Counted from the first letter of the stretch, positions 9,291-22,027 are shown. The stretch: DNA of 32,000 bases from Synechococcus sp. A15-28 (GCF_014280175.1 NZ_CP047931.1:600001-632000), one strand, 5' to 3'. The notes: generated from the letters alone by a model not told the origin. Program-made: numbers and translations.

Positions 9291-10388
9291 GTGCCCGATC
9301 CCAGGGATCTGCAGCTCAGCAGTTACGACTACCGGCTGCCGCAGGAGCGGATCGCCCAGGCTCCGGCCGAACCACGCCACAGCGCTCGGCTTCTGATGGT
9401 GCCCCAGGCGACCCAGGGGCTCGATGAAGCCAGGCACGGGACGGTCTGGGATCTGCTGGAGGAATTGCAGCCTGGCGATCTTCTGGTGGTGAACGACACC
9501 CGGGTGCTCAAGGCACGGTTGAAGGTGCGTCGCTCCGGTGGTGGGCTGTCGGAGCTGTTGGTGCTGGAGCCCCGCGGGGAGGGGCGTTGGCTTTGCCTGG
9601 CACGACCGGCGAAGCGCATGCGGCCCGGCGATGTGCTCAGCATCGATGGCACCTCGATCAGCCTGACGGTGCTGGATGAGGATGCCGCCAGTGGGGGGCG
9701 TTTGGTCCAGTTCCCGACGGACTGCCGAGATGCGGAGACAATCGAGAGGCTGCTGAATCAGTGGGGCGAGGTTCCACTCCCCCCTTACATCGACCGGCAC
9801 GACCCCGACGATGCTGATCGCTATCAGACTCGCTACGCCGACCGACCTGGCGCGGTTGCGGCACCAACGGCGGGTTTGCATTTCAGCGATGAACTGCTGG
9901 CCGGTCTCCAGCGCAAGGGAGTGGACCTGGCACGCATCACTCTTCACGTGGGACTCGGTACGTTCCGCCCCGTGGAGACGGAAGATCTCACCCAACTGGA
10001 ACTGCACAGCGAGTGGATCGAGGTCAGTGCGGCGGTGGTGGAGGCCATCCAGCGGTGTCCGGGCCGGGTCATTGCCGTCGGCACCACCTGTGTGCGGGCT
10101 CTGGAGGGGGCGGCTCAACAGAACGGTGGAGTTCTGCAACCGCTCACGGGGCCCGTCAACCTCGTGATTCAGCCGGGCTATCGCTTTCGGGTGGTGCAGG
10201 GTCTGGTCACTAACTTCCACTTACCGAAGAGTTCGTTGTTGCTGTTGGTAAGCGCCTTGATTGGACGGGAAAAGTTACTGCGTTTGTATGACGAAGCAAT
10301 TCAAAAGCAGTATCGATTTTTTTCTTATGGCGATGCGATGTGGATTCCACGGGAAGCGATTCTGCAATCAGCTCAGCTGATTCCATAA
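9291..10388 (+). CDS. queA: S-adenosylmethionine:tRNA ribosyltransferase-isomerase QueA
   Basis: 365 aa. ..[12 protein letters not shown].., ..TAGLHF.., ..[16 protein letters not shown].. and ..[12 protein letters not shown] are QueA signatures. The last ~180 nt are AT-rich, unlike the rest of the gene. Confidence 0.9.
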
Positions 10389-11023
10389 AATGGGTCCAAC
10401 CAGGAAATTTTTAGGGGGTCAATGTGGAGAAAGGCTGGCTGAATCATCAGTCTTTTTCCGGTAACGGCAGCTCGAATAGGTTCGCTTGTTTCCATCAATG
10501 ATTTGGCTGTGATGATGGCATGTTGGATGCAAGCGTTGGCATAGGACTGCTTCTCGTCAATGTTGATGCCATGACTGGTCAGTCCGAGCTGGATATCACG
10601 AACGAGCTCTGTTAAGGAAGCTGAGAAAACCTGATTTTTCAAATATGCAGCCTTTACTGCGCCGCAACCTTGATGACTCATCACAAGAAGGACGCTAACA
10701 TTGAGGTCAAGCACAGCATATTCAATCGAACCAGCTGACCCAAACGTGTTGGTATTTCCAGCATTGCGGATTACGAAAAGATCTCCAAAGCCTGCATCGA
10801 AGATCACTTCAACAGGAACTCTTGAATCAGAGCAAGCTAATAATGCAACTCGTGGGTGCTGCCCTCCGGCGAGTTGGTGCTCGCGTGCTTTTGTTGCGTG
10901 GGGGTGATGCGACGTGTTGCTCAAAAAGCGATCAAACCCTCGTTTGAGCTCTTCCACAACCTCGTTTGGATCAAAATACCCTTGGTTTGAGTCAACGTAA
11001 TAAGAGTCAATCATAAATTTCAC
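10373..11023 (-). CDS. Beta-class carbonic anhydrase
   Basis: 216 aa with the two zinc-ligand motifs of beta-CAs, ..[12 protein letters not shown].. (CxDxR) and ..MSHQGCGAV.. (HxxC). No N-terminal hydrophobic signal is visible. Its 3' end overlaps the queA 3' end by 16 nt, convergently. Confidence 0.85.
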
Positions 11024-11144
11024 AAGTTAACTTCCTCATTATTGCTATATAGATTAATGAAAGACGCTTTGGTCAGCAAATGCTAACTTTTTTCGGGATG
11101 TTTCTTGACTCGAGCCTCATAATTGAGGAAAGGTCACAACGTTA

Positions 11145-12557
11145 ATGCTTGCCGTTATTGTTTCACACTCGCTTTTGGCTTTGAAGGAGCCAGGTGCAGA
11201 AATTGAGGCTGCAACGGGGATGCTAGAGAAGCTCCCTTCGTTGCACTTCTCTTTTCAAGGGGCACTCCTATCACTCTCTCTGCTGTTGCTGGTCAGCATA
11301 CTGTCAGAAAAATTAGGCGTAAAGCTTGGAATACCTGGATCAATCTTCTTGTTTTTTGCTGGTCTCTTTTTTCATGTCTCAGGCTTTAGCTTTGAATCTT
11401 TTCCGTTAGAACAAGTTCATGTTGTATCGCTTTGTATATTGTTATTTTTCAGCGGGCTTTCCTTCGATCGGAAGCTTTTAAAAGAAAATAAAGTTCTATC
11501 TAATTCAATAAGTTTGGGTATTTTCGGAACCTTGCTTAGCATGGCTTTATGGCTGTTTTATTTAATCGTAGGTTTTGGTTTTTTTCAAGGTTTTTTTGGT
11601 TATCTAGAGGGTGTAAAGCAAGAGCTTGTCGAATTGCTCGTTGTAACTATTGTTTTTTCAATCGCAGTCCAGGATTGGAATTCATTTATGTTCGTATCTA
11701 AGAGAATCGTAGATTTTCGTTCAATTCTATCCAATATTTTTAGAGTTGAAACATCTATCTCAGCTTCGATCTCCGTAGCTGTTGCCGAGATTCTTGTTCT
11801 TGTTTGGCTCGCTCTGCATCCTGAGTATCAGCTCCTTAACGGATGGCAATTGTTCTCATCGATCTCCCAAGGAATATTCATTGGATCAGTATCAGGAATT
11901 GTTCTCGGTTACATTTTGATGCTGACAATTCGGTATGTCATTACGTCTAAACCTCAACTGGTTTTAGGTGCTGTTGCATTCACCCTGATCGGTTACGTAA
12001 TTTCTTTTTCAATTACTCACCAGGGTGGGTATCTCTGTGCGTTAGTGATGGGCATTGTTACCTCTTTGACCTATCGTAAAAGCTCAACTGAGGAAGAGAT
12101 AGAATTTCTAGCAGAAGAATTGGAGACACTCAATATTGCTTCTGAGGCAATCCTCTTCTTTGCGATTGGCCTTGGACTCAATGCAACTTCCTTCTTTGTT
12201 CACTTGCCAGTGGCGATCTATGTCTGGCTTGGAATCATCATCATCAGGCCAATTACAGTAAATCTCTTTTTCAAGGGCTCTCCTGCCATCGAGACTGAAG
12301 AACGTCAGCTCCTATCGATATGGAGTCCAAAAGGAGCCATTTCAATGGCCTTGGTGGTAACTGCACCAGAGCTGCTGGAGGGAACTTTTGGTATGGAGAT
12401 TGCTGAAATTTTTCCTGAAAGCGCTTCTAGCTTCTCGGCGGATGTGGTTTGCGGTGCTGTTTTGTTCTCGATGATTGTTAAATCCTTGGCGATTCCAAAA
12501 ATTCATTCCCAATTGATTCCCACTCAAAATACTATTACCACCAATCAAGAGGCTTGA
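11145..12557 (+). CDS. CPA-type (NhaP/CPA1-like) cation:proton antiporter-fold membrane protein, atypical
   Basis: 470 aa and highly hydrophobic, with about 11-13 TM segments. ..LLFFSGLSFD.. and ..WSPKGAISMALVV.. resemble the CPA1 consensus. GAGG lies at 11125-11128, upstream of the ATG. Confidence 0.6.
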   Translation: MLAVIVSHSLLALKEPGAEIEAATGMLEKLPSLHFSFQGALLSLSLLLLVSILSEKLGVKLGIPGSIFLFFAGLFFHVSGFSFESFPLEQVHVVSLCILLFFSGLSFDRKLLKENKVLSNSISLGIFGTLLSMALWLFYLIVGFGFFQGFFGYLEGVKQELVELLVVTIVFSIAVQDWNSFMFVSKRIVDFRSILSNIFRVETSISASISVAVAEILVLVWLALHPEYQLLNGWQLFSSISQGIFIGSVSGIVLGYILMLTIRYVITSKPQLVLGAVAFTLIGYVISFSITHQGGYLCALVMGIVTSLTYRKSSTEEEIEFLAEELETLNIASEAILFFAIGLGLNATSFFVHLPVAIYVWLGIIIIRPITVNLFFKGSPAIETEERQLLSIWSPKGAISMALVVTAPELLEGTFGMEIAEIFPESASSFSADVVCGAVLFSMIVKSLAIPKIHSQLIPTQNTITTNQEA

Positions 12558-12560
12558 GTT

Positions 12561-13223
12561 ATGTTGAAAAAAAAGCTGACAGATCGGTACCGGCTCTCAC
12601 GGGCAGTGTTGGTGGGCACAGTTATAACTCTTTTGTTCATGCCCATCTTGGCAACGAATGAAGCGACGACGATTGCAGTCGCATCTGCGCTTGCAGTGGA
12701 TTTTTGTATTTTTATCAAGCAATCCTGGCTCATTGACGTCAATAACACAAGGGATATCTTCCAGCAATTCGATGCGAAAGAATCATCTGTTGCAGAAAGA
12801 ACAATAGCGCTTGTATTTCTGAGTGTGGGCATATTGAGTTTCTGCATTGCGGAATTACATTCAAAGCATGATGTTCTGCCGAACTCAATTCATGTTTTTA
12901 TAAGTTTTATAGCACTATTTTTGACCTGGCTGCAGTTGCACAACGGATTTGCGCTTTACTATGCAAAAAAATACTTTGATATGAATCCGGTTCGACTTGA
13001 TGATCCTGAGGGGCAACTGGGATTTATATTTGAAGGAACAGAGCCAACATTTAGCGATTTTTTATATATTTCTTATTCGATAGGTCTTACTTATTCAATG
13101 ACTGACTGCGGCATCAAGGATTCTGCGGTTAGGCGAATTGTTATCATTCACTGCCTCTCTTCATTTCTCTACGCATCAACAGTACTGTCGATCATATTCT
13201 CATTGGCGACGCAAGTGAGTTGA
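12561..13223 (+). CDS. DUF1345-like integral membrane protein
   Basis: 220 aa. The C-terminal half ..HNGFALYYAKKYF..FSDFLYISYSIGLTYSMTDCGIKDSAVRRIVIIHCLSSFLY.. matches my recollection of the DUF1345 consensus. It starts 3 nt after the antiporter stop. Confidence 0.55.
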   Translation: MLKKKLTDRYRLSRAVLVGTVITLLFMPILATNEATTIAVASALAVDFCIFIKQSWLIDVNNTRDIFQQFDAKESSVAERTIALVFLSVGILSFCIAELHSKHDVLPNSIHVFISFIALFLTWLQLHNGFALYYAKKYFDMNPVRLDDPEGQLGFIFEGTEPTFSDFLYISYSIGLTYSMTDCGIKDSAVRRIVIIHCLSSFLYASTVLSIIFSLATQVS

Positions 13224-13358
13224 TCCGCAAAAGGGTTATCCATAACCTTTAGGGGTATGCATATGTGTGCGTTCCCTATTATTTTGTCGGGCGGCAGCGT
13301 TGGATACTTTCCAAATCCCGTATCTTCTCTACAATCAACTTGTGAACAGAATCAATCC

Positions 13359-13661
13359 ATGTTCGAACTCGAGTATCTCCTAGCTTTCGGCCTGGGTGCA
13401 GGTCTCGTTGCTCTTACCCCCGTTGTAGCTGCTGCTGCTGGAAAGGAAAGCGCTATCACCAAGACTGTTTCTGGCGCCGGACGTGGCTTGACAAAACAAG
13501 GTCTGAAAGCTGGTCTCTTTGTAGGAGGAAAGGTATCTGGACTGTTCACTGGCGTTAAGTCGGGTTTGAATGAGGTGGGTGAGAGCTTCGGCGACATTCT
13601 TGCTGAAGCGAAAGCAGACATGGCTACACCGAAAACTAAGACTTCATCACAAAAGGCTTAA
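13359..13661 (+). CDS. Small membrane-anchored glycine-zipper protein (DUF5132-like), paralog 1
   Basis: The start at the internal ATG is chosen because both paralogs then begin MFELE. It has a hydrophobic N-segment, a Lys/Gly period-4 region GLTKQGLKAGLFVGGKVSGLFTGVKSGL and an acidic tail. Confidence 0.6.
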   Translation: MFELEYLLAFGLGAGLVALTPVVAAAAGKESAITKTVSGAGRGLTKQGLKAGLFVGGKVSGLFTGVKSGLNEVGESFGDILAEAKADMATPKTKTSSQKA

Positions 13662-13664
13662 AGC

Positions 13665-14102
13665 TTGCCAATTACAGTTAAACATCGTGTATTTGGTCGT
13701 GTGAGATTTATTTGGGAGAAGAAATATACCAGTCACGAGATAAAGCTTATGGAATTATCGTTCTTGTATCATTTTCCTGAGTGTCGTTTTCGTTCTGCTT
13801 CAGGTAATACAGGTTGTGTGGTTCTTTTTGATGAAAGTAGTGATCAGCTTTTGTGCCATCAAGTGACTGATTGGATTCAGAATTTCATAGACTTTGCTGA
13901 GTGCCAAGGTCCGTTACTACCACCATCCAAAAGGGATATTCTGATCGACAAGGTTAAAGGTTGGACTGCTCAGTCCATGATTGTTATGGCTATTCTCGGA
14001 TGGATATTACCAATTCTTCCCGGTACTCCATTTTTCTTTGTGGCATGGTGGCTGGGTTGGAGGCCGTCGTCCACAAATCAGTCAGTTGTCGCCGAACCAT
14101 AA
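13665..14102 (+). CDS. Cysteine-free basic HMA-like (CoBaHMA/HMA2-like) domain protein with a C-terminal LPxxPG membrane hairpin
   Basis: TTG start 3 nt after the preceding stop. ITVKHRVFGRVRF ... ECRFRSASGNTGCVVLFDES follows the ferredoxin-like HMA pattern without CxxC. The C-terminus ..ILGWILPILPGTPFFFVAWWLGW.. resembles the DUF454/YbaN and PGPGW hairpins. Confidence 0.6.
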   Translation: MPITVKHRVFGRVRFIWEKKYTSHEIKLMELSFLYHFPECRFRSASGNTGCVVLFDESSDQLLCHQVTDWIQNFIDFAECQGPLLPPSKRDILIDKVKGWTAQSMIVMAILGWILPILPGTPFFFVAWWLGWRPSSTNQSVVAEP

Positions 14103-15170
14103 ACGCAGCCAGCTTTGAGTCATTTGTGCCCTATTGCATTGCATTGCTTCCAATTTTGCGGGCAATTCGATGCTTCTGCAGTATCCATTGTAGATCAAGT
14201 TGATGGTTGAATTGATCTGTTGAATATTCATATTATCTTTCTTCACCCCTGGTAGAAATATTTTCATGCAATGACTCTCTGTATTCCATTCTTCAATGCT
14301 TAAAGACTTATTCTTGTCTTTTAATGCGTTTGCCACGAGATCTGATTCGGGGACTGTGATCGAGCTGTTAAACGTTGTTGGTCCGTTTCGGCATTCATTT
14401 TCGATTTTGATATTGGATGTATTACTTGCGTCTTCGACAATCAGTAGATGCGGTATTGCACGGTGCATGCCTGCAACGCTTAATCGAGTTAGCAGCTGTT
14501 CCGGTTTGTAGTTTTTGCCATCAAGAATTAATGTGAAATGATGATTGCTCCGACCCGAGATCGTCTGTTGTAGGAGATGTAAACGACCTTTCCATGTTTC
14601 GTTGAGACGTAACTGTTGTGATGATGGTAAGCGTAAGCGCAGTAATTTTTCGACCGTTGAAAGTGTTTGACGCGTTGTGTCCCACCAGTTAAGCAAAGGC
14701 TCTAGCAATTGGTCGATCAAGGCTGGACCCTTTTGTGCCATTCCAAGTATTTTTAAAGCATGCAATGGCGTTGGGAGGATTACGATTAAAAGTGTACTTT
14801 TTGACGCACTGTCTAGTATTTCTGACAAGAAGATCAATCTCGTTAAGTCTTCGATCCCTGGAAGTTGCGGAAGCTCGATAGATTGTTTCCCTGCAATGTC
14901 GAGCAATTGCCACCAATCTTTGGCATGTGGATTGAGCTGTTCCCAAAGTCGAGCCAGGCTACAAATATAACTGAAATTTTCTACGATAAAATTCTTCTTG
15001 GCTATGAAATCTGATGTGTCTAAATCAATCTCTCCTGATAGATTAATCAATCTTGTGTCAGCATTTTCCTGCTGAGTATGTAGGAGCCCTTGCAACCATT
15101 GGTGTAGCGCTGAATACCGGTCTGCGCTTACCAAGAGAATCAAGGCACTGATTTCGTCTTCGAATGCCAT
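14082..15170 (-). CDS. ArsA/Get3-like protein lacking the P-loop, with an HSP20/alpha-crystallin-like C-terminal domain
   Basis: 362 aa. ..ILLVSADRYSAL.. aligns by eye to ArsA ..LLVSTDPAHSL.., and ..LIVILPTPLHALKIL.. to switch II ..DTAPTGHTLRLL.. No GKGGVGKT is present. The tail ..MKIFLPGVKKDNMNIQQINSTINLIYNGYCRSIELP.. resembles the ArsA_HSP20 domain. Confidence 0.6.
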   Translation of the reverse strand: MAFEDEISALILLVSADRYSALHQWLQGLLHTQQENADTRLINLSGEIDLDTSDFIAKKNFIVENFSYICSLARLWEQLNPHAKDWWQLLDIAGKQSIELPQLPGIEDLTRLIFLSEILDSASKSTLLIVILPTPLHALKILGMAQKGPALIDQLLEPLLNWWDTTRQTLSTVEKLLRLRLPSSQQLRLNETWKGRLHLLQQTISGRSNHHFTLILDGKNYKPEQLLTRLSVAGMHRAIPHLLIVEDASNTSNIKIENECRNGPTTFNSSITVPESDLVANALKDKNKSLSIEEWNTESHCMKIFLPGVKKDNMNIQQINSTINLIYNGYCRSIELPAKLEAMQCNRAQMTQSWLRLWFGDN

Positions 15171-15235
15171 TGTATCGGGAATGTCTTATTGGATTTCGGG
15201 ATTTTCGGGTAATATCTCCAAAATTCCATTACACC
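15171..15235. promoter_or_regulatory. Divergent promoter/operator region with tandem TTTCGGG repeats
   Basis: A 65-nt spacer lies between divergent starts. ATCGGG sits at 15174-15179, ATTTCGGG at 15193-15200, ATTTTCGGG at 15201-15209 and a TAATAT -10-like hexamer at 15210-15215. The 9-mer TTTCGGGAT recurs at 11091-11099. Confidence 0.3.
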
Positions 15236-15577
15236 ATGTTTGAACTGGAAACACTTGCTGCTTTCGGAGCAGGTGCTGCCTTGATGGCGTTAGCACCAGT
15301 TGTTCGAAAAATGGGCAATGAAGAGCTTGGAGACTCCATGGGGAAGGCAGGTCGCACGATGGCCAAAAGTGGAGTCAAGGTAGGTCTCGTTGCGGCAGAC
15401 GTTGCCGGAAAAGTTGCCAACGGTGTGACGAAGAACGTAGCTGAAGTCGCTGAATCGTTTGTGGACTTGGTTCAAGAAGCTAAGTCTGAGCGCGTTGAAC
15501 CAACAGATATCGACGCGGAACAGCCACCTACTGATGCATCCCGATCTCAGGTCATCACAGAAGTAACTGTCGAATAA
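15236..15577 (+). CDS. Small membrane-anchored glycine-zipper protein (DUF5132-like), paralog 2
   Basis: Begins MFELETLAAFGAGAALMALAPVV, parallel to paralog 1. Small-xxx-small periodicity GVKVGLVAADVAGKVANGV, a conserved ..VAESFVDLVQEAKSE.. and an acidic tail. Confidence 0.6.
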   Translation: MFELETLAAFGAGAALMALAPVVRKMGNEELGDSMGKAGRTMAKSGVKVGLVAADVAGKVANGVTKNVAEVAESFVDLVQEAKSERVEPTDIDAEQPPTDASRSQVITEVTVE

Positions 15578-15622
15578 GTCTGAATTCCATTCCAAATTTA
15601 TAATCTCTCTCCTACAAACATC

Positions 15623-18157
15623 ATGGCCACATCATTTCAGAACAGTTCAGGTTTTGGGGTCGTTGATGGAGGTGCTTCAGCACGAACATCTCGAGATCCT
15701 GCACTGCCACGATTCATTGATCGCATTCTTCATGCATCGTCTCGAAGACTTCGCTTCAGTGTGGAAACTGATTTCAAAGATCCAGATAACTTCACGCGAC
15801 ATATATCAACGCTTTCGTCAGTAGAGCAGGTTCGTTTTAATAGCTGGGCCTCTTGTTACATTGTAATTTTCAAGACTGGATATAAAATTGACGCTCTGCA
15901 ATGGCTAAGTTCACTACCACGGCGATCGCGTGAAATCCCTATTGTTCCAGAAGATTCGCTGACTGATACCGCCACTTCTACAAGCCTTCAGTCTGCTGAG
16001 GAAGAAGAGGAAAAATTTGTTCCAACGCGCATTATTCTCCCAGTTTGTTCTCTTGGTCTGGCCATAGCTGCTGGTCCTCTGGCTCTTCCTCCACTCGCCG
16101 TTGGAGTTTTTATCATTGGCGCAGCGCATCTGAGTTTCAAAAGAGCTTGGGAGGGTCTGAAAAAAGAGCGCAAAATTAATGTTGATTTTCTCGATGCCTT
16201 AGCTGTTTTGCTTCACAGCTTGGAGGGCTTTCTTTTGGGGCCAGCCATGATGATCACCATGATTGAGGGTGGTGAAGCTGTACGAGATGCTACTCAGCGT
16301 ATTGCTCACTCATCAAACACTGATCTTGTTTCCAGCCTTCAATCTGATGTGCGTCTGCTCACAGAAGATGGCGAGAAGATTGTTTCGAGTTTTGACCTTA
16401 GCCCTGGTGATCGTGTTTCGTTCCTGCCAGGAGACAAAATACCGATCGATGGTGTTATTGAGTCTGGTGAAGTTTCCCTCGATGTTGTGAAGCTGACGGG
16501 TGAATCAGTTCCGAGGATGTCGGGTCCCGGAGATGAGATTTTGGCCGGCTTTATTGTTTTGGAAGGCCACATTATTGTTACAACCTCTGCTGTTGGTCAT
16601 GACACGCGCGTCGGGCAGATCACTAAAATGATCGAGTCGGCGCCTGTTTTTGACACGCGTGTCGGAAATTTTGCCGCAAATATCGCCAATCGGTTTGTCA
16701 TCCCGACATTGGTTTTGGCGGGTGTCTCCCTGATGCTCAGTGCAGGCAATATTGCTCAGGCAGCATCTCTGCTCATGTTCGATCTTGGAACGGGGCTGCG
16801 TGTTTCAGTCCCAACTGCGATCATGGCTGCACTGACCAGAGCTGGAAGTCAAGGCCTGCTGATTCGTAGTGGACGTGCTTTGGAGCAGTTGGTTGAAGTT
16901 GATGTTGTCGTTTTTGATAAAACCGGTACGTTGACGGAAGGCCACCCGTCAATTGTTGAGTTTACTGTTTTTGACCAAAATGGAGCCCCCGATGAGTTTG
17001 TTGATGCTGATAAGTTTAAACACCTTTTGCAACTTTCCACATCACTTGAACAGGGGTTGAACCACCCGATCGCCAAGGCGATTCGTGATTTTGCTGAAGA
17101 GCAAGACGTCGACGTGATCGATTGCGAAAGCTGGGATTACAGGGTCGGTCGAGGTGTCGTCGCCACTGTTAATGGTGAGACGGTTCTTCTCGGAAACTTA
17201 AAACTTCTTCGGGAAGAGGGTGTCGAGATCTGGACAGTCGACTCCAAGCCTGAGCTGGACGTTGCTACCCCCATTTATCTTGCAGTTGATGGTCTCTTGG
17301 CCGGTATTCACTACGCCCTTGATCGTGTCAGACCAGATACGTCAGCCATGATCGCTGAATTGCATAACCGGGGTATTGAAGCTCATATGTTGACCGGTGA
17401 CATTTCCTCTGTCGCCCATGCTGTCGCTGCCGATATCGGCTTACAGCCTCATGAAGTTCATTCAGATGCCTTACCTGATCAAAAGGCAGAGTTGGTTCAA
17501 GAGTTCACTGCCGCAGGGAAGAAAGTTGTTTTTGTGGGTGATGGCATCAATGATTCAGCAGCCCTTGCCTATGCTGATGTCTCAGTATCCTTCGCCTCAG
17601 GCAGTGATTTAGCTCGCGAAACGGCTGATATTGTTCTCACGAATGATCGGGTCTCTGATCTGATTGTTGCCCAAGATTTAGCACGTCATACTTTTGCTTT
17701 GGTGAAACAGAACATTGGTATTGTCGGGGTTCCAAACTTATCGGCACTTCTGATCGGTACGTTCCTGCCAGTCAATCCCATCGCGGCTGTTTTCCTTAAC
17801 AATGGTTCCTGTCTTGTGGCAGCTGGCAATGCGATTCGGGCTCTTGGTTTCAAGGCCAAACCGCTACCTGAAATCGAAGCATCAGCTTCTACAGTGAATG
17901 TAGAAACAGTGCTCCCTGATACCGCTGCAGCTCAGGCCACGACAGAAGAAACTACCGACGAGAACGCTTCCTTACCCATCACTCATCTTGATTTGGCAGC
18001 TCTTTCACGTCGTGTTGGACTCAGTTATCAGAAGATCTCAGCCCGTCGTCGACGCAATGATTTTGCTGATTGGATATCGACTCATGATCCTGAAGGTCAT
18101 GGTTGGGAGTACAGCATTGATCTCAAAACATTCTCCATGGTTCCTGCGGTTTCATGA
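15623..18157 (+). CDS. P-type ATPase, P1B-like architecture, atypical (no CPx membrane motif, no CxxC N-domain)
   Basis: 844 aa with TGES (aa 292-295), FDKTGTLT (D432, nt 16916-16918), NHPIAKAI, MLTGD and GDGINDSAAL. The position of the P1B CPC reads LGT (nt 16784-16792). The N-terminal domain is HMA-like, with ..ILHASSRRLRFSV... Confidence 0.9.
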   Translation: MATSFQNSSGFGVVDGGASARTSRDPALPRFIDRILHASSRRLRFSVETDFKDPDNFTRHISTLSSVEQVRFNSWASCYIVIFKTGYKIDALQWLSSLPRRSREIPIVPEDSLTDTATSTSLQSAEEEEEKFVPTRIILPVCSLGLAIAAGPLALPPLAVGVFIIGAAHLSFKRAWEGLKKERKINVDFLDALAVLLHSLEGFLLGPAMMITMIEGGEAVRDATQRIAHSSNTDLVSSLQSDVRLLTEDGEKIVSSFDLSPGDRVSFLPGDKIPIDGVIESGEVSLDVVKLTGESVPRMSGPGDEILAGFIVLEGHIIVTTSAVGHDTRVGQITKMIESAPVFDTRVGNFAANIANRFVIPTLVLAGVSLMLSAGNIAQAASLLMFDLGTGLRVSVPTAIMAALTRAGSQGLLIRSGRALEQLVEVDVVVFDKTGTLTEGHPSIVEFTVFDQNGAPDEFVDADKFKHLLQLSTSLEQGLNHPIAKAIRDFAEEQDVDVIDCESWDYRVGRGVVATVNGETVLLGNLKLLREEGVEIWTVDSKPELDVATPIYLAVDGLLAGIHYALDRVRPDTSAMIAELHNRGIEAHMLTGDISSVAHAVAADIGLQPHEVHSDALPDQKAELVQEFTAAGKKVVFVGDGINDSAALAYADVSVSFASGSDLARETADIVLTNDRVSDLIVAQDLARHTFALVKQNIGIVGVPNLSALLIGTFLPVNPIAAVFLNNGSCLVAAGNAIRALGFKAKPLPEIEASASTVNVETVLPDTAAAQATTEETTDENASLPITHLDLAALSRRVGLSYQKISARRRRNDFADWISTHDPEGHGWEYSIDLKTFSMVPAVS

Positions 18158-18678
18158 CACCAACGCTTTGTTTGCGCCATCGCACCGATAGTCGCTGGAG
18201 GTTTGTGGTGACCCACGCATCCCAGTGTGATTGGGCTCGTCTGCAACGCGATCTTGTCGATGTTTTCCCCAACAGCAGCTGGTCTGTTCGAATCAATCAA
18301 AGGATTGGCTCGATTGTGGTTTGCCGCTTGGCTTCTGCACCACGCCTTCGTCAGGATCCGTTGTCATTGGTATTTGGGCGTGTTGCAAAGCAACTGAACC
18401 TTCAGGGATTTTCCGTCCCTGAAACCCCTTTAATCCCAACGGAAATCGTTGATCGGACCTCTCAGAAGCGGCTGAATGCTCTTCATTCGGTATTTCGTGG
18501 TATTGCCAATGCCGCTTCAGTGTCTTTATCCATATCTACTTTGTTATTGTCTCTGGCCCTCTTTATTATTGGTTTGCTGGGCATCCTTCTGCCATTTTCT
18601 CCAGGGATCTGGTTGTTGGTTGTAGCGACTGCTCTTTTTGACCTAGCCCTTTCTTTTCGTCGTCCTTTCGTCGTCTAA
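18154..18678 (+). CDS. Cysteine-free basic HMA-like (CoBaHMA/HMA2-like) domain protein with a C-terminal LPxxPG membrane hairpin, second copy
   Basis: ATGA start/stop overlap with the ATPase (18154-18157). LCLRHRTDSRWRFVV ... SVRINQRIGSIVVCR follows the HMA-like pattern. C-terminus ..LFIIGLLGILLPFSPGIWLLVVATALF.. Confidence 0.6.
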   Translation: MTPTLCLRHRTDSRWRFVVTHASQCDWARLQRDLVDVFPNSSWSVRINQRIGSIVVCRLASAPRLRQDPLSLVFGRVAKQLNLQGFSVPETPLIPTEIVDRTSQKRLNALHSVFRGIANAASVSLSISTLLLSLALFIIGLLGILLPFSPGIWLLVVATALFDLALSFRRPFVV

Positions 18679-18683
18679 ATCTC

Positions 18684-20780
18684 GTGACAATGCTTGCTGC
18701 GGCTTCACCATCCCCCTGGATCATCCGCAGCGAGCTCGCCGATCGAATTCGTGTCTTCCATCCAGGTTTGTCCTCCTCGCCTGGATTGCGCCAACATTGT
18801 GCGTCTTTGCTGCACCGGACGCATTGGCTGTTGAGTCACCGTATCAATGCTGTTTCTTCAACAGTAGTTATCCGATTCCACCCTCGCCAACGAGGCGATA
18901 TCACGCTCTTACTCGACCGTTGTTTCATTGACCCGGTAGCTGATTCGGGGCTTGAAAAGGCCCTTTCAGCAGAATCGCGCATCACAGACATCACGCACAG
19001 CTCCGCTTTTCAGAAGGCCCTTCGCACTGGCGCGATTTGCGGTTCAATTCTCTTCATTGATCCGATCGTCGCTGTTCCCCCGTTGGGTCTTGGCTTGGTG
19101 GCCACCATGCTGAGCTGGCCATTATTACGTGAATTATTTGAACAAGTGAACGAGCGCCTACAAGGAGAGGCTGATCCGCGACAGTTACTACCCCCTGCAT
19201 CGGTGGAGGTGGCACTGTCCGCTACGTTGATTGGATCAGGCTTGGCGCGTGAATCTCTTGTTGAAGGACTTCTAGGCAGTTCCACTTCGGCGCTTCAGTC
19301 GATGAGTGAGAACACCCAAGGATCAAGTTCGGAATTTTTTGCGTTTCTGGAGCGTCTGAAGACGTCAGTGATGCTGAGATGCATCGATATTCAAACAGAG
19401 GAAAGTACCTTGCTTCCTATTGGTGATCTTCAAGTTGGTCAACGCTATCGCTTGATGGACGATGATCATGTTTATCTGTCTTCCCGAGTTGTCCAAGGGG
19501 AGCTGGTTGTTACGAACAGCCTCAGCGATGGTTCCTCCCTGCCATTTCGTGTGGTGCCGGGTGATCACCTCGCCTTTGGGGCTTTTGTGCTGTCCGGAGA
19601 TGGTATTTGTGAAGTGGTTCAGTCGTTTTCTGAGGTCAGTCTCTTTAAGATCGAAGACACTCTTCTCGAGGAAGATGGATCAAGTGATTTCCAAAAGCGT
19701 TTGTCTTACTTGTACGATCTTCTGCTTCCTCCCGTACAGCTTGGATTTGGTGTTTGGTCGTTGCTGAATGGTCTAACAGAACGAGCCATTGGTTTGCTTT
19801 CATTTAACCCAGCTGAAGATTCTGAACGTTCCAAATTGTCTTCTTCAGAGTCAGCTTTGGTTGATATGGCACTCAATAATGTGCACATTTCAGATTCGCG
19901 CGTTTTTGAGACATTAATGGATGTTAGTCACATCATGATCAGCATCGATGCTTTGCGCCATCTTGGTACCTATTCTTGTCAACAAACCTTGTTAAATGGT
20001 GCTTCTGCACTTGATTGTGATTTACTTCAGATTCTTTGGGCTATTGTTTCTGATTTTGGTGCTGATCCATCTGTTGTCTTATGGGGAATTTTGAGTGATG
20101 TCCAAGAGAAACATCCTGCTCTTCAGTCTCTTGAAGTCAATGTCGGTGAATCGGATCAAGGTCTTTATCGCGTTGTCCTTGAAGGTCAGCCTGTCGTTTT
20201 AATTCGTTTCACGGAGAAGGATGGGGCAATTCATGCATCTTTCTCTACTGAAGAAGCGGATCTTGGTGTTATTACGATTACTTGGCGACCATCTCAAGAG
20301 TTTGAAATGATGTCGTCTCAGCTTTGTAAGCTTGGCATTTCAGTCTCTACGGTTGGTGCTCATTGTGGGCGCACTAAGGAAGCAGAAGACCGTAAGTCCA
20401 GATTGCTAGAGCTTCGTAATCAAGGATGTAAGGTGGCTTATCTTGGAGACGTTATTGACGATATTGCTGCAATGGCAGCAGCTGATATAGCTATAGGTCT
20501 TGCAGAGGATGAACTGGGCTTTATTTCTAAGACCGTTTGCGACATTGTACTTGGAGGCGATATTTTATGGTTGGCTCGTCTTTTTGTTTTGAGCCGAAAT
20601 TTTGTAGAAGCCAATCGTTTTAACACGAATTTGATTGTTGGCTCTTCTGTCCTGCTTGCAGCAGCCTCTCTTGTTGCCACCTTCTCGCCATTGCAAACGA
20701 TATTGCTATTTAACTCTGCTCCAATCATCGCTGAGATCAATACACTCAGGTCTCTCAACGGTTCAAGTTCCAGGCTATAG
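18684..20780 (+). CDS. Degenerate P-type ATPase paralog (probable pseudo-enzyme) with an N-terminal HMA-like domain
   Basis: 698 aa and collinear with P1B ATPases, but TGES becomes SDGS (aa 281-284), DKTGTLT becomes IDALRHLGT (D422, nt 19947-19949) and GDGINDxxAL becomes GDVIDDIAAM. TM segments are retained at both ends. Confidence 0.7.
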   Translation: MTMLAAASPSPWIIRSELADRIRVFHPGLSSSPGLRQHCASLLHRTHWLLSHRINAVSSTVVIRFHPRQRGDITLLLDRCFIDPVADSGLEKALSAESRITDITHSSAFQKALRTGAICGSILFIDPIVAVPPLGLGLVATMLSWPLLRELFEQVNERLQGEADPRQLLPPASVEVALSATLIGSGLARESLVEGLLGSSTSALQSMSENTQGSSSEFFAFLERLKTSVMLRCIDIQTEESTLLPIGDLQVGQRYRLMDDDHVYLSSRVVQGELVVTNSLSDGSSLPFRVVPGDHLAFGAFVLSGDGICEVVQSFSEVSLFKIEDTLLEEDGSSDFQKRLSYLYDLLLPPVQLGFGVWSLLNGLTERAIGLLSFNPAEDSERSKLSSSESALVDMALNNVHISDSRVFETLMDVSHIMISIDALRHLGTYSCQQTLLNGASALDCDLLQILWAIVSDFGADPSVVLWGILSDVQEKHPALQSLEVNVGESDQGLYRVVLEGQPVVLIRFTEKDGAIHASFSTEEADLGVITITWRPSQEFEMMSSQLCKLGISVSTVGAHCGRTKEAEDRKSRLLELRNQGCKVAYLGDVIDDIAAMAAADIAIGLAEDELGFISKTVCDIVLGGDILWLARLFVLSRNFVEANRFNTNLIVGSSVLLAAASLVATFSPLQTILLFNSAPIIAEINTLRSLNGSSSRL

Positions 20781-20815
20781 GGGTTGATTGTTAATTGATA
20801 TCTACAAATTCGAAT

Positions 20816-21421
20816 TCAGTTAACAAGTATCTTGACTCCGATGGCGATAAACAATGCCCCGCTTATGTACGACAGTCGTTTTTGACATAATCGATTTTTT
20901 AAACATTTTCCAGAGTAAACTGCCGTAATGGCTAAAAGAACGTTTGCGGCGACTGCTCCGGAGAAAATACTTTCAGCAGATATATTTGGACCTGCTGCTA
21001 AGGCAAGGAGTGCAAGTTGTGTGCGATCCCCGAATTCGGCTAAAAATGTTGTTGTGAAGGAGTTGCGTATGACGGCGTTGGCTGCCATCTTTGGTGCTGG
21101 TAATTGGAATTGGCTTGTATCGCATTCATCTTTGGCGACGTCAATCTTTGCTTCCAATCGTCTTGCTTCAATAATTGCGTTTGTGCCAAAGAGAAGGAAC
21201 GCAATACCCGAGACAATCTGAATGGTGTCGATGGATACGATCGATCTCATCCATACCCCAGCAGTGATCCAAAGTCCTGCCCCTATTGTGAGGGCTGAAA
21301 CGCTTCCAGTGAAAACCCAACGTGCTTTATGTCTTGCTGCCAGCAGAAGGGTAGTAATGAATGACTTATCTCCAACGCCTGCGATTGCGACAGTGGCGAA
21401 AGCAGTTGTGAACCCTGCCAC
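20816..21421 (-). CDS. UPF0016 / GDT1 / TMEM165 (Mnx-type) Ca2+/Mn2+:H+ exchanger family protein
   Basis: 201 aa in a two-repeat architecture. The second repeat has the canonical ExGD(K/R)(T/S) motif (..LAEFGDRTQLA..). The first repeat reads ..IAGVGDKSFIT.. GTG start. Confidence 0.75.
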   Translation of the reverse strand: MAGFTTAFATVAIAGVGDKSFITTLLLAARHKARWVFTGSVSALTIGAGLWITAGVWMRSIVSIDTIQIVSGIAFLLFGTNAIIEARRLEAKIDVAKDECDTSQFQLPAPKMAANAVIRNSFTTTFLAEFGDRTQLALLALAAGPNISAESIFSGAVAANVLLAITAVYSGKCLKNRLCQKRLSYISGALFIAIGVKILVN

Positions 21422-21499
21422 GATCTTTAAAAACTTTACAGAAACCCTATCGGAAAAGTCTCATGCCCGTTGTTTCCGTCAGTACATGTGGATATGGCT

Positions 21500-22027
21500 T
21501 CAGTGATTTGTGGGTTTCTTGATCAGCCAAGCTGTGCGCTGTCCGGCTCGATGGATCCGTTCAAACTCGAGGCCCATTCTGCGAAATCCAAGTTGACCAC
21601 TTGATAGTTGTACGGTCTGGGGCAAGCGCTTCACCTCGAGGAGCGAACAAATCTCGTGGCTAGAGAGTTCGATTTTTGTTGTTTTGAGCAAATGGAGAAG
21701 CTCAATTTTTTCACGCAGTAAACGTAGTTTGGAATACTTTCTGACGTCGTCTTGGAAAGGTTGCTCTGTATTTGTCTCGGTTGTTACTAGTTCATGATGG
21801 CTGCTGTTGGAGTCCACGGTGACGACTTCAGCTACCAGGGGGGCCTTCGGATTGTCCCGTCCGAGGTGGTCGTAGATAAGACCCGTTTCCTCCTGACGGA
21901 CCAAGGTGCGCATGCCTCGTCGAATTGGCTCAATTCCGAGTTCGCGAATGATGAGAAGCAGTTCAACGCGTGATATCCCTAGATCCGCCTCCAGGCTGCC
22001 AAGGCTGACTGCTTGCTGAGAGCTCAT
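21500..22027 (-). CDS. Hypothetical protein with an N-terminal helix-turn-helix-like segment (possible regulator)
   Basis: 175-aa ORF of intermediate G+C. ..LGSLEADLGISRVELLLIIRELGIEPI.. looks like an HTH. No family recognised. Confidence 0.45.
   Translation of the reverse strand: MSSQQAVSLGSLEADLGISRVELLLIIRELGIEPIRRGMRTLVRQEETGLIYDHLGRDNPKAPLVAEVVTVDSNSSHHELVTTETNTEQPFQDDVRKYSKLRLLREKIELLHLLKTTKIELSSHEICSLLEVKRLPQTVQLSSGQLGFRRMGLEFERIHRAGQRTAWLIKKPTNH

Follow-up and report, generated by a model that had tools for sequence, protein, structure and literature searches.

The stretch of DNA analysed here, hereafter the window, covers 32,000 nucleotides of Synechococcus sp. A15-28 and holds a 45% GC island in the 65% GC background of this marine Synechococcus. 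It contains a conserved gene cluster, about 10 genes in size, comprising a beta-carbonic anhydrase, cation/H+ antiporters, a DUF1345 protein, two CoBaHMA-hairpin proteins as predicted from sequence, a Get3/ArsA-like protein, a P1B-type ATPase without CPC together with its inactive paralog, and the two genes studied here, MFELE-1 and MFELE-2. One edge of the island is marked by the beta-carbonic anhydrase gene (10373..11023, minus strand; Pro_CA, 103 bits), conserved beside the cluster, and the other by the gene of a conserved hypothetical protein of 175 aa (21500..22027, minus strand), which has 38-61% identical orthologs in many loci, matched no Pfam or NCBIfam family and, on our own reading of its residues, may have an HTH-like N-terminus. 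Family or domain matches identified a Na+(K+)/H+ exchanger family protein (11145..12557, plus strand), a DUF1345 membrane protein (12561..13223, plus strand; also found in loci L001, L040, L042, L048 and L049) and a GDT1/UPF0016 divalent cation/H+ antiporter (20816..21421, minus strand). The Get3/ArsA-like protein of 362 aa (14082..15170, minus strand), whose position is conserved in the loci, retains only the C-terminal ArsA_HSP20 domain, with no P-loop visible in its N-terminus; its gene is convergent with that of the 145-aa protein described below, which its 3' end overlaps by 21 nt. A scan of the island for promoters and terminators gave counts no higher than those of shuffled sequence. 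The TTTCCA-16-TACAAT site found 24 nt before MFELE-1 is given no weight.

MFELE-1 (13359..13661, plus strand) encodes a DUF5132-like small membrane protein of 100 aa, and MFELE-2 (15236..15577, plus strand) its paralog of 113 aa. A first-pass annotation, made from the sequence, had placed both open reading frames at exactly these coordinates and had proposed that they are homologous. The two proteins indeed share 43% identity over 101 aa (BLASTP with compositional adjustment, E 4e-12). About 78 homologs were found for each at E<=1e-3, picocyanobacterial almost throughout, and residues M1, E3, L4, E5, G13, A14, L16, A18, P21, G41, K46, K50, E72, E75, D79, E83 and A84 are invariant in a 24-sequence alignment. 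Comparison with marine orthologs gave pN values of 0.12-0.24 and pS values of 0.69-0.91, with dN/dS of 0.05-0.10 where computable. In view of this conservation and low dN/dS, both are real, paralogous coding genes under strong purifying selection.

The resemblance to DUF5132, which the first-pass annotation had suggested, was supported, with a Pfam score that is borderline and confined to MFELE-1. Pfam DUF5132 (PF17195) reached 25.4 bits on MFELE-1, against a gathering threshold of 25, and gave no match on MFELE-2 at E<=0.1; about half of the orthologs, like MFELE-2, score below the threshold, and precomputed assignments occur on many MFELE-1 orthologs and on no MFELE-2 ortholog. It should be noted that the PF17195 model spans only about 30 residues, the H3 block of MFELE-1 (AE.GESFxDLLAEAK) aligning to model positions 15-43. 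Of 1.84 billion cluster representatives, only 54 matched a joint profile of the two proteins. This profile matched the Microcystis 'DUF5132 domain-containing protein' cluster (E 1.7e-13), as well as DUF5132 proteins of Xenococcaceae, Anthocerotibacter, Nostoc and Neosynechococcus, and its remote full-length matches are cyanobacterial DUF5132 proteins, including the Microcystis one encoded directly upstream of ccyA. On the basis of these profile matches, the MFELE proteins are classed as a cyanobacterial branch of DUF5132. A canonical DUF5132 member in Sinorhizobium (44 bits) has an unrelated gene context, its plasmid-borne gene neighbouring transposase, glyoxalase and radical-SAM genes and not adjoining HMA_2 genes.

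The claim of membrane anchoring was in turn supported by hydropathy and modelling. The N-terminal Kyte-Doolittle mean over 19 residues is 2.1 in MFELE-1 and 1.6 in MFELE-2, and the AF2 model of MFELE-1 contains helices at residues 2-27 (H1, the anchor), 32-58 (H2) and 62-89 (H3), with a pLDDT of 71-85 over residues 1-50 and lower values beyond. The hydrophobic part of the anchor helix (residues 6-27; 13374..13439, plus strand) includes the invariant G13, A14 and P21. Taken together, AF2 and hydropathy reproduce the architecture of the DUF5132 type found in ccyA neighbourhoods, with an N-terminal TM helix, a hairpin helix and a long DUF5132-motif helix. Since the invariant E3 and E5 precede the anchor helix and Lys/Arg residues follow it, the positive-inside rule predicts an N-out/C-in topology for MFELE-1. 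Besides the anchor helix, two charged stripes, each within an 80-degree helix arc, are kept across the family, namely the basic stripe R42/K46/K50 of H2 (13482..13508, plus strand) and the acidic stripe E72/E75/D79/E83 of H3 (13572..13607, plus strand). The latter, formed of invariant columns inside the Pfam match at residues 61-89, is the most conserved feature of the family in the alignments. The aligned columns of MFELE-2 give a basic stripe R40/K44/K48 and an acidic stripe E70/E73/D77/E81 (15443..15478, plus strand). An acidic tail, initially attributed to both proteins, was found in MFELE-2, with 11 D/E in residues 71-113 and the ending ITEVTVE, and not in MFELE-1, whose end is Lys/Ser/Thr-rich.

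Calcyanin (CcyA) consists of a CoBaHMA N-terminus and a C-terminal (GlyZip)3 domain (Benzerara et al., 2022, PMC8890360), and the first-pass annotation saw in the MFELE proteins a split-gene echo of the latter domain, in which (G/A)xxx(G/A) zippers could self-assemble into an oligomer or a membrane coat. Small residues at every fourth position were indeed above chance in MFELE-1, where glycines at i/i+4 in residues 35-72 numbered 6 against 2.2 expected (P=0.003); A9, G11, G13 and A14 add small residues to the anchor helix, and H1 and H2 were modelled with a pLDDT of 71-85. By contrast, no significant enrichment was seen in MFELE-2 (1 observed, 0.7 expected, P=0.56), and non-picocyanobacterial relatives have non-glycine sequence in place of the glycine-rich middle region. 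Moreover, when 63 MFELE sequences were compared by hhalign with the GlyZip domains of 16 picocyanobacterial calcyanins, the probability was 0.2% (E 0.31), and a Foldseek search of the PDB with the MFELE-1 model returned no match at E<=0.001, glycine-zipper channels included. One anchor helix followed by charged amphipathic helices also differs from three long glycine zippers. The glycine-zipper reading of these sequences is thus weak, both as a defining and as an oligomerising feature, and self-assembly of this kind is very unlikely. Homology of MFELE to the GlyZip or CoBaHMA domains of calcyanin was rejected by hhalign.

Each MFELE gene is followed by a gene for an HMA-like protein, with gaps of 3 nt for MFELE-1 and 45 nt for MFELE-2, as first described. 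The protein encoded after MFELE-1 (145 aa; 13665..14102, plus strand) would combine a CoBaHMA-like N-terminus with a DUF454-type C-terminal helical hairpin (LPILPGTPF), according to a DUF454 match, hhalign and signature residues, and has the hairpin motif in common with the Microcystis HMA_2+DUF454 protein. MFELE-2 precedes the gene of an 844-aa P1B-type ATPase (15623..18157, plus strand) with a putative N-terminal CoBaHMA-like domain (ILHASSRRLRFSV). This gene is overlapped over 4 nt by the start of that of a second CoBaHMA-like protein, of 174 aa, with a C-terminal hairpin anchor (18154..18678, plus strand), and then comes a catalytically dead P-type ATPase paralog of 698 aa (18684..20780, plus strand), conserved in the loci, with a CoBaHMA-like N-terminus and without DKTGT, TGES and GDGxND.

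The CoBaHMA domain is an HMA-like fold defined by a conserved basic patch (PMC8890360), for which binding to anionic lipids has been hypothesised (Gaschignard et al., 2024, as relayed in bioRxiv 10.64898/2025.12.07.689555). It was recognised here by a conserved His in strand beta0, basic residues in beta1/beta2 and a relation to the calcyanin N-terminus, hhalign and signature residues being used in place of Pfam HMA_2 (PF19991), which gave no significant match on the window proteins nor on 19 of 20 aligned relatives. Against the calcyanin N-terminus, the four proteins reached hhalign probabilities of 80-91.5% (E 1e-5 to 8.5e-7), with 91.5% for the 145-aa protein, 90% for the ATPase and 80% for the 174-aa protein, the last also matching the HMA_DUF454 family at 97%. 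In an alignment also covering the Microcystis HMA_2+DUF454 protein, H7, R12 and R14 never vary and R43 hardly does. The presence of HMA-like genes next to both ORFs was thus upheld and, as judged from these alignments, all four downstream proteins carry a CoBaHMA-type domain. The AF2 model of the 145-aa partner, built on a 4-sequence alignment of window paralogs only, is unreliable (pLDDT 48), and its beta-beta-alpha-beta-beta order is suggestive only. The 844-aa ATPase scored 444.7 bits with TIGR01525 (cut-off 346) and contains the DKTGT, TGES, HP and GDGIND motifs; the motif scan found no [CST]P[CHST], and alignment with HMA4 revealed DLGTG instead of CPC in TM4. DLGTG is also kept in the ortholog of locus L045 (38% identity, E 8e-180), which does carry Pfam HMA_2. 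From this score and these motifs, the gene after MFELE-2 is assigned to the P1B-type ATPases, without CPC. Literature searches on NosAFP, HMA2-domain P-type ATPases and DUF1345 in cyanobacteria yielded nothing relevant.

Gene order proved to be widely conserved when the linkage of DUF5132-like genes to HMA-like or ATPase genes was counted, as had been proposed. In picocyanobacteria, a CoBaHMA-DUF454 gene follows MFELE-1 in 24 of 35 loci, the two often overlapping by 4 nt as if translationally coupled, and the ATPase gene follows MFELE-2 in 28 of 35. In other cyanobacteria, 8 of 10 loci have Pfam HMA_2 genes next to the DUF5132-like gene or only a few genes away, and in L042, L044, L045, L046 and L049 a P-type ATPase gene directly follows a DUF5132-like gene; in Neosynechococcus sphagnicola sy1, both DUF5132-like genes stand alone, without CoBaHMA neighbours. 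Across picocyanobacteria, Nostoc, Gloeothece, Phormidesmis and others, the DUF5132 and CoBaHMA pairing thus recurs as the core of a mobile cluster.

Phospholamban, sarcolipin, KdpF and FXYD are small bitopic proteins encoded with, or acting on, P-type pumps, and we know of no counterpart of these single-pass regulators in P1B pumps. By analogy, MFELE proteins might regulate the ATPase through transmembrane helix contacts, independently of CoBaHMA. The position of a DUF5132-like gene just upstream of the ATPase gene in the window, in the 28 picocyanobacterial loci and in the five others would suit such a role, as would an anchor helix with a conserved small-residue face and Pro21. Unlike these regulators, however, MFELE proteins have CoBaHMA partners that are not ATPases, as MFELE-1 does with the CoBaHMA-DUF454 protein; the strongest conservation lies in the soluble H2 and H3 and not in the membrane helix alone, and the 20-kb Microcystis locus that groups both DUF5132 genes with CoBaHMA genes and ccyA contains no P-type ATPase. 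Such regulation is accordingly considered unlikely.

The link with calcyanin suggested in the first-pass annotation fared differently in its two parts: similarity to GlyZip failed, as seen above, while the genomic association went beyond what had been guessed. Indeed, 19 of 35 picocyanobacterial loci (HK05, Vulcanococcus, Cyanobium, lake MAGs) carry ccyA on the strand opposite to MFELE-1, 41-118 nt upstream of it, which makes calcyanin a genomic partner, and the proteins encoded downstream of the MFELE genes have the calcyanin-type CoBaHMA signature. The ccyA gene is the marker of intracellular amorphous CaCO3 (iACC), the function of calcyanin being unknown (PMC8890360). In Microcystis, ccyA is co-expressed with the DUF5132 and CoBaHMA-DUF454 genes (bioRxiv 10.1101/2024.07.07.602159), and the DUF5132 proteins WP_002741624.1 and WP_002753396.1 of Microcystis aeruginosa PCC 7806 are encoded at -1 and -4 relative to ccyA (Bruley et al., bioRxiv 10.1101/2024.07.07.602159). 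The DUF5132 family and its genomic ccyA link had thus already been noted in this genus. These proteins belong to the same family as MFELE, the profile match reported above being to the -1 type, and share with it their length, N-terminal TM helix, hairpin helix and long DUF5132 helix, our AF2 model agreeing with the published one; as in the window, the cluster has two DUF5132 paralogs beside a CoBaHMA-DUF454Cter protein. Identity is nevertheless only about 30-38%, the glycine-rich H2 of MFELE is missing, and an NJ tree without bootstrap suggests independent duplications. The neighbourhoods also differ, that of Microcystis having cax and ccyA, whereas the window lacks ccyA and has two P-type ATPase genes. 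The pairing first seen beside the Microcystis ccyA is no local accident.

Within the 32-kb window, no GlyZip ORF was found in a coding-like frame, and ccyA was absent from marine loci L004-L009. The island of this marine strain could thus serve Mn2+/Ca2+/pH homeostasis or detoxification, unrelated to any mineral, with MFELE as accessory membrane proteins; the recurrence of GDT1 or MntP, DUF1345 and Na/H exchanger genes in the cluster and the low GC, suggestive of an accessory trait, are in favour of this. However, the same cluster has ccyA in the 19 related loci and always includes carbonic anhydrase, and ccyA could lie elsewhere in the genome, which makes a purely homeostatic island quite improbable.

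Mms6/MamG-type magnetosome membrane proteins are small and single-anchored, combining a hydrophobic part rich in Gly/Leu with an acidic C-terminal one, and belong to a biomineralisation cluster. The comparison with MFELE is an analogy only, no sequence relation being expected, and mineral, organism and envelope type differ. A counterpart role would have the MFELE acidic stripe and the MFELE-2 acidic tail bind Ca2+ directly at the granule envelope and nucleate or stabilise amorphous carbonate, much as has been proposed for the acidic C-terminus of the magnetosome protein Mms6 with iron. It is consistent with the position of E72/E75/D79/E83 on one helix face, with the carbonic anhydrase and Ca2+-type antiporters of the cluster, with the adjoining ccyA of relatives and with the thin envelope of iACC granules, 2.5 nm thick and of unknown composition (PMC6087745). 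Yet the predicted topology would place the acidic stripe on the cytoplasmic and not the luminal side, an acidic tail is lacking in MFELE-1, four acidic residues make a weak Ca2+ site, and the tight gene-by-gene pairing of MFELE with CoBaHMA is left unexplained. A matrix function therefore seems rather unlikely.

We propose instead that the MFELE proteins are probably adaptor subunits of the ion-handling machinery of the cluster. Each would be a small bitopic protein anchored by its N-terminal helix, N-out/C-in, in the membrane or granule envelope, with H2 resting on the membrane surface via the basic stripe, while H3 would dock by its acidic stripe on the CoBaHMA basic patch of the protein that the next gene encodes. 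The partner would be the CoBaHMA-DUF454 protein, plus calcyanin where present, for MFELE-1, and the pump for MFELE-2, and docking would tether or gate the machinery handling cations and carbonate. This mechanism as a whole is put forward tentatively, its chances being a little short of even. It is favoured by the charge complementarity of the acidic stripe and the basic patch, together with paralogy, selection, family identity, gene order, the ccyA link, the CoBaHMA signature, the three-helix AF2 fold and the co-expression reported in Microcystis. The adaptor model is weakened by the lone genes of Neosynechococcus sphagnicola sy1, by the Sinorhizobium DUF5132 gene without HMA_2 neighbours, by Pfam HMA_2 scores below significance on the window proteins and by the low pLDDT of the 145-aa model. 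In addition, the absence of ccyA from the window, which leaves any iACC role in Synechococcus sp. A15-28 hypothetical, counts against the model.

A broader reading, distinctly unlikely at present, would see in DUF5132-like/CoBaHMA pairs the conserved core of an ion-storage or mineral-granule organelle of cyanobacteria, with MFELE as envelope-anchored adaptors recruiting CoBaHMA pumps, hairpin-anchored proteins and calcyanin, and with the marine island as a horizontally spread, calcyanin-independent variant. If this were true, sequestration of Ca/carbonate, or of other cations, by ocean picocyanobacteria would be wider than the ccyA marker suggests. Marine Synechococcus islands, which have the whole apparatus except ccyA, offer natural controls for the contribution of calcyanin. 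Binding of the acidic stripe to the CoBaHMA basic patch is itself a hypothesis open to mutagenesis; the basic stripe of H2 could instead pair with the acidic stripe of H3, within or between MFELE molecules.

The two MFELE proteins of the window, MFELE-1 (100 aa, 13359-13661(+)) and MFELE-2 (113 aa, 15236-15577(+)), were 43% identical over 101 residues (E 4e-12), in line with the paralogy claimed in the first-pass annotation, and the gaps separating them from the next genes were indeed 3 nt and 45 nt. Each had about 78 database homologs, drawn almost entirely from metagenomes, together with Synechococcus/Cyanobium-type genomes. An alignment of 24 sequences from both paralog groups contained 17 invariant columns, and the presence of M1, E3, L4 and E5 among them confirmed the start codon. 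Comparison with four marine orthologs gave non-synonymous values of 0.12-0.24 per site against synonymous values of 0.69-0.91, which are saturated, and a dN/dS of 0.05-0.10 where computable. Judged from this conservation, MFELE-1 and MFELE-2 are genuine, constrained genes.

A profile built from both paralogs retrieved only 54 matches (E<=1e-3) among 1.84 billion cluster representatives. Its distant full-length matches were cyanobacterial proteins labelled DUF5132, from Microcystis (E 1.7e-13), Xenococcaceae, Anthocerotibacter, Nostoc, Neosynechococcus and others, so that the likeness to DUF5132, a Pfam family of unknown function, was borne out. The family shares an N-terminal M(E/F)LE, a Pro-containing hydrophobic helix, a basic central region and an AE.xESFxDLVAEAK block. 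An 'EVTVE/EVEIA' C-terminal tail is frequent in the distant relatives and retained in MFELE-2, and has been lost in MFELE-1. The acidic tail attributed to both proteins holds for MFELE-2 only. In a neighbour-joining tree without bootstrap, MFELE-1 and MFELE-2 formed sister clades with matching internal topology within the picocyanobacterial branch, which suggests a lineage-specific duplication, separate from that in Microcystis.

From a structural point of view, the hydrophobic N-terminal segment (residues ~6-27) had a 19-residue Kyte-Doolittle mean of 2.1 for MFELE-1 and 1.6 for MFELE-2, and is unlike a Sec signal peptide. With invariant acidic residues before it and Lys/Arg after it, the segment is predicted by the positive-inside rule to be oriented N-out, C-in. 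The AF2 model obtained with the family alignment comprised three helices, H1 (2-27), H2 (32-58) and H3 (62-89), with a mean pLDDT of 66 (71-85 for residues 1-50), and had no significant Foldseek match in the PDB. On helical wheels, the invariant R42, K46 and K50 of H2 (MFELE-1 numbering) formed a basic stripe within an 80-degree arc, and the invariant E72, E75, D79 and E83 of H3 an acidic stripe, also within an 80-degree arc. The Pfam DUF5132 match corresponds to the H3 block, still the most conserved feature among distant relatives, and we infer that the single-faced acidic stripe defines the family. A stripe of this kind could also belong to a matrix protein binding Ca2+ directly. Glycine-zipper self-assembly is a further, less likely explanation. 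The pattern of small residues at every fourth position, measured as glycine at i/i+4, exceeded chance in MFELE-1 (P=0.003) and not in MFELE-2 (P=0.56), and the glycine-rich H2 occurred in picocyanobacteria only.

The gene neighbourhood pointed to a CoBaHMA partner. When one genome per species was scanned, 33 loci were obtained on contigs with a picocyanobacterial cluster, the best match being Synechococcus sp. MIT S1220; combined with the loci from protein look-up, these amounted to 35 distinct picocyanobacterial loci. In 24 of them a CoBaHMA-DUF454 gene lay directly 3' of MFELE-1, the two frequently overlapping by 4 nt, and an ATPase gene directly followed MFELE-2 (or the single copy of Synechococcus lacustris-type genomes) in 28. 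Outside picocyanobacteria, genes for HMA_2, the Pfam counterpart of CoBaHMA, were adjacent or a few genes away in 8 of 10 loci, including Nostoc sphaeroides, a N. flagelliforme plasmid, Microcystis, Phormidesmis, Xenococcaceae, a plasmid of Gloeothece PCC 7822 and further cyanobacteria; both exceptions were from Neosynechococcus sphagnicola sy1. The proposed linkage of DUF5132-like and HMA_2 genes was recovered in these cyanobacterial loci. Genes for DUF1345, MntP or GDT1, beta-carbonic anhydrase, cax, DUF454 and ArsA-like proteins also recur in these clusters. Public MAGs assign some picocyanobacterial-cluster contigs (L004-L006, L008, L033, L034 and L039) to Rhodopirellula sp., uncultured proteobacterium or uncultured Klebsiella sp., probably through mis-binning.

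Pfam HMA_2 remained below significance on the window proteins. In ortholog alignments, the N-terminal domains of all four matched the N-terminal domain of picocyanobacterial calcyanin (hhalign 80-91.5%, E 1e-5 to 8.5e-7), which upholds the HMA-like nature claimed for the downstream products. When the window partners were aligned with a Microcystis protein called HMA_2+DUF454 by Pfam, a His, an Arg-x-Arg and an LPxLPGTPF hairpin motif were invariant; the first two are equivalent to the His of beta0 and the basic residues of beta1 by which CoBaHMA is defined (PMC8890360). The partner of MFELE-1, a protein of 145 aa (13665-14102), has a C-terminus of DUF454 type; its structure model was too poor for use.

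The relation to calcyanin was more direct still: 19 of the 35 picocyanobacterial loci, among them those of S. lacustris, HK05, Vulcanococcus, Cyanobium and many lake MAGs, carry a ccyA gene of ~290 codons on the opposite strand, 41-118 nt upstream of MFELE-1 (L001:8974-9858(-), with equivalents in L012-14, L017, L019, L021-24, L026-29, L031-34 and L036). The encoded protein combines an N-terminal CoBaHMA domain with three long glycine zippers, and its entire GlyZip region, up to the terminal GRKIDW, aligned with Microcystis CcyA, whose gene lies between DUF5132 and cax (E 2e-12). For Microcystis, Bruley et al. (bioRxiv 10.1101/2024.07.07.602159) described the order DUF5132, CoBaHMA-DUF454, CoBaHMA, DUF5132, ccyA, cax, and co-expression of ccyA with the DUF5132 and DUF454 genes. 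ATPase and carbonic-anhydrase genes are found near ccyA in Fischerella, and ccyA is diagnostic of the formation of intracellular amorphous CaCO3 (iACC), marine Synechococcus RS9917 included (Benzerara et al., 2022, PMC8890360). The known range of ccyA, and hence that of predicted iACC formers, seems to be widened by these loci. The same clusters in Nostoc sphaeroides and Phormidesmis encode CoBaHMA proteins of 403 aa (L040:12645-13856(-)), with a glycine-zipper-like C-terminal region and a central GP (GEVLGGVVGGIVGETVGSILAGPIGMVVGEEVG...), and of 268 aa (L046:8007-8813), with a faint Pfam Gly-zipper_YMGG match; both could be atypical calcyanin-like proteins.

In the window and in marine loci L004-L009, ccyA was absent upstream of MFELE-1, where a Na/H-exchanger gene (11145-12557 in the window) is found instead, and no GlyZip ORF occurred in the whole 32 kb. 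GC content was 39-50% over ~10.4-21.5 kb, against ~65% for the window generally, and the 11-kb island (10400-21450) had 45.5% GC between flanks of 65.6% and 63.5%. It is bounded by queA and a PALP-family (PLP-dependent) gene, within housekeeping genes (queA and 2-oxoacid dehydrogenase E2 at one end; at the other, PLP-dependent enzymes together with a PSII antenna-family gene), and the queA-adjacent site is common to the low-GC islands of other marine Synechococcus loci (L004, L007, L009). Because marine islands have 43-48% GC in hosts of 60-66%, unlike HK05- and Vulcanococcus-type clusters, whose GC equals that of the host, the marine versions look horizontally acquired. Such an island might serve non-mineralising cation homeostasis; besides the exchanger, it carries genes for a beta-carbonic anhydrase (10373-11023(-)), a DUF1345 protein (12561-13223) and a GDT1 antiporter (20816-21421(-)). 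At its edge, a conserved 175-aa protein (21500-22027(-)) had no family match and may be an island regulator, since its N-terminus (LGISRVELLLIIRELGI) resembles a helix-turn-helix.

MFELE-2 is followed by an 844-aa P1B-type ATPase (15623-18157; TIGR01525, 444.7 bits) with DKTGT, TGES, HP and GDGIND, in which the TM4 CPC is replaced by DLGTG. This substitution is kept in a distant ortholog (L045), an HMA_2-bearing ATPase of another cyanobacterium, 38% identical over the full length (E 8e-180). A ~50-aa C-terminal module of the window ATPase (LDLAALSRRVGLSYQKISARRRRNDFADWISTHDPEGHGWEY) recurs centrally in a Nostoc protein that has a CoBaHMA domain and a glycine zipper (E 3e-7). After a 174-aa protein (18154-18678) comes a 698-aa degenerate paralog of the pump (18684-20780) in which a motif scan found none of DKTGT, TGES, TGD and GDGxND; kept in nearly all clusters, it is likely a pseudo-ATPase partner. 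MFELE proteins could also act as transmembrane-helix regulators of the pump; their constant genomic partner is the CoBaHMA domain, not the ATPase or ccyA as such. We consider it likely that the MFELE proteins, which belong to this cluster, are members of a calcyanin-type ion-handling system.

Anionic lipids were proposed as ligand of the CoBaHMA basic surface by Gaschignard et al. (2024), as relayed in bioRxiv 10.64898/2025.12.07.689555. Given this basic surface, the acidic stripe of MFELE and the apparent translational coupling of many of the gene pairs, the most economical model, held tentatively, is a stoichiometric complex: the acidic helix of the small membrane-anchored MFELE protein would dock onto the basic patch of the CoBaHMA protein made directly afterwards, and so tether or gate this partner. 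The convergent Get3/ArsA-like gene (14082-15170(-), 362 aa), which at its 3' end runs 21 nt into the CoBaHMA-DUF454 gene, encodes the HSP20-like C-terminal domain (ArsA_HSP20) alone, with no recognisable P-loop, in place of the full ArsA ATPase of the Nostoc cluster (L040:14834-15937). Its product may be relevant to the insertion of hairpin- or tail-anchored CoBaHMA proteins. The granule envelope is 2.5 nm thick and non-bilayer (PMC6087745), and we speculate that this envelope, the hairpin anchors and the Get3/ArsA-like gene are compatible with an unusual set of envelope-embedded proteins.

DUF5132 beside ccyA and CoBaHMA-DUF454 in Microcystis had already been reported (bioRxiv 10.1101/2024.07.07.602159). 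The breadth and strict order of the DUF5132-like/CoBaHMA pairing across cyanobacteria, the picocyanobacterial cluster with adjacent ccyA, its low-GC marine variant without ccyA and the acidic-stripe/basic-patch hypothesis appear undescribed in the literature searched, and make an open question of biomineralisation more testable. Among the profile matches was also an uncharacterised 568-aa protein (P0181) of Liolophura sinensis, a chiton, in which seven stretches matched the H3 region (E 1.5e-7). Chitons are biomineralising animals; this similarity is probably a chance likeness of amphipathic helices, amplified by repeats.
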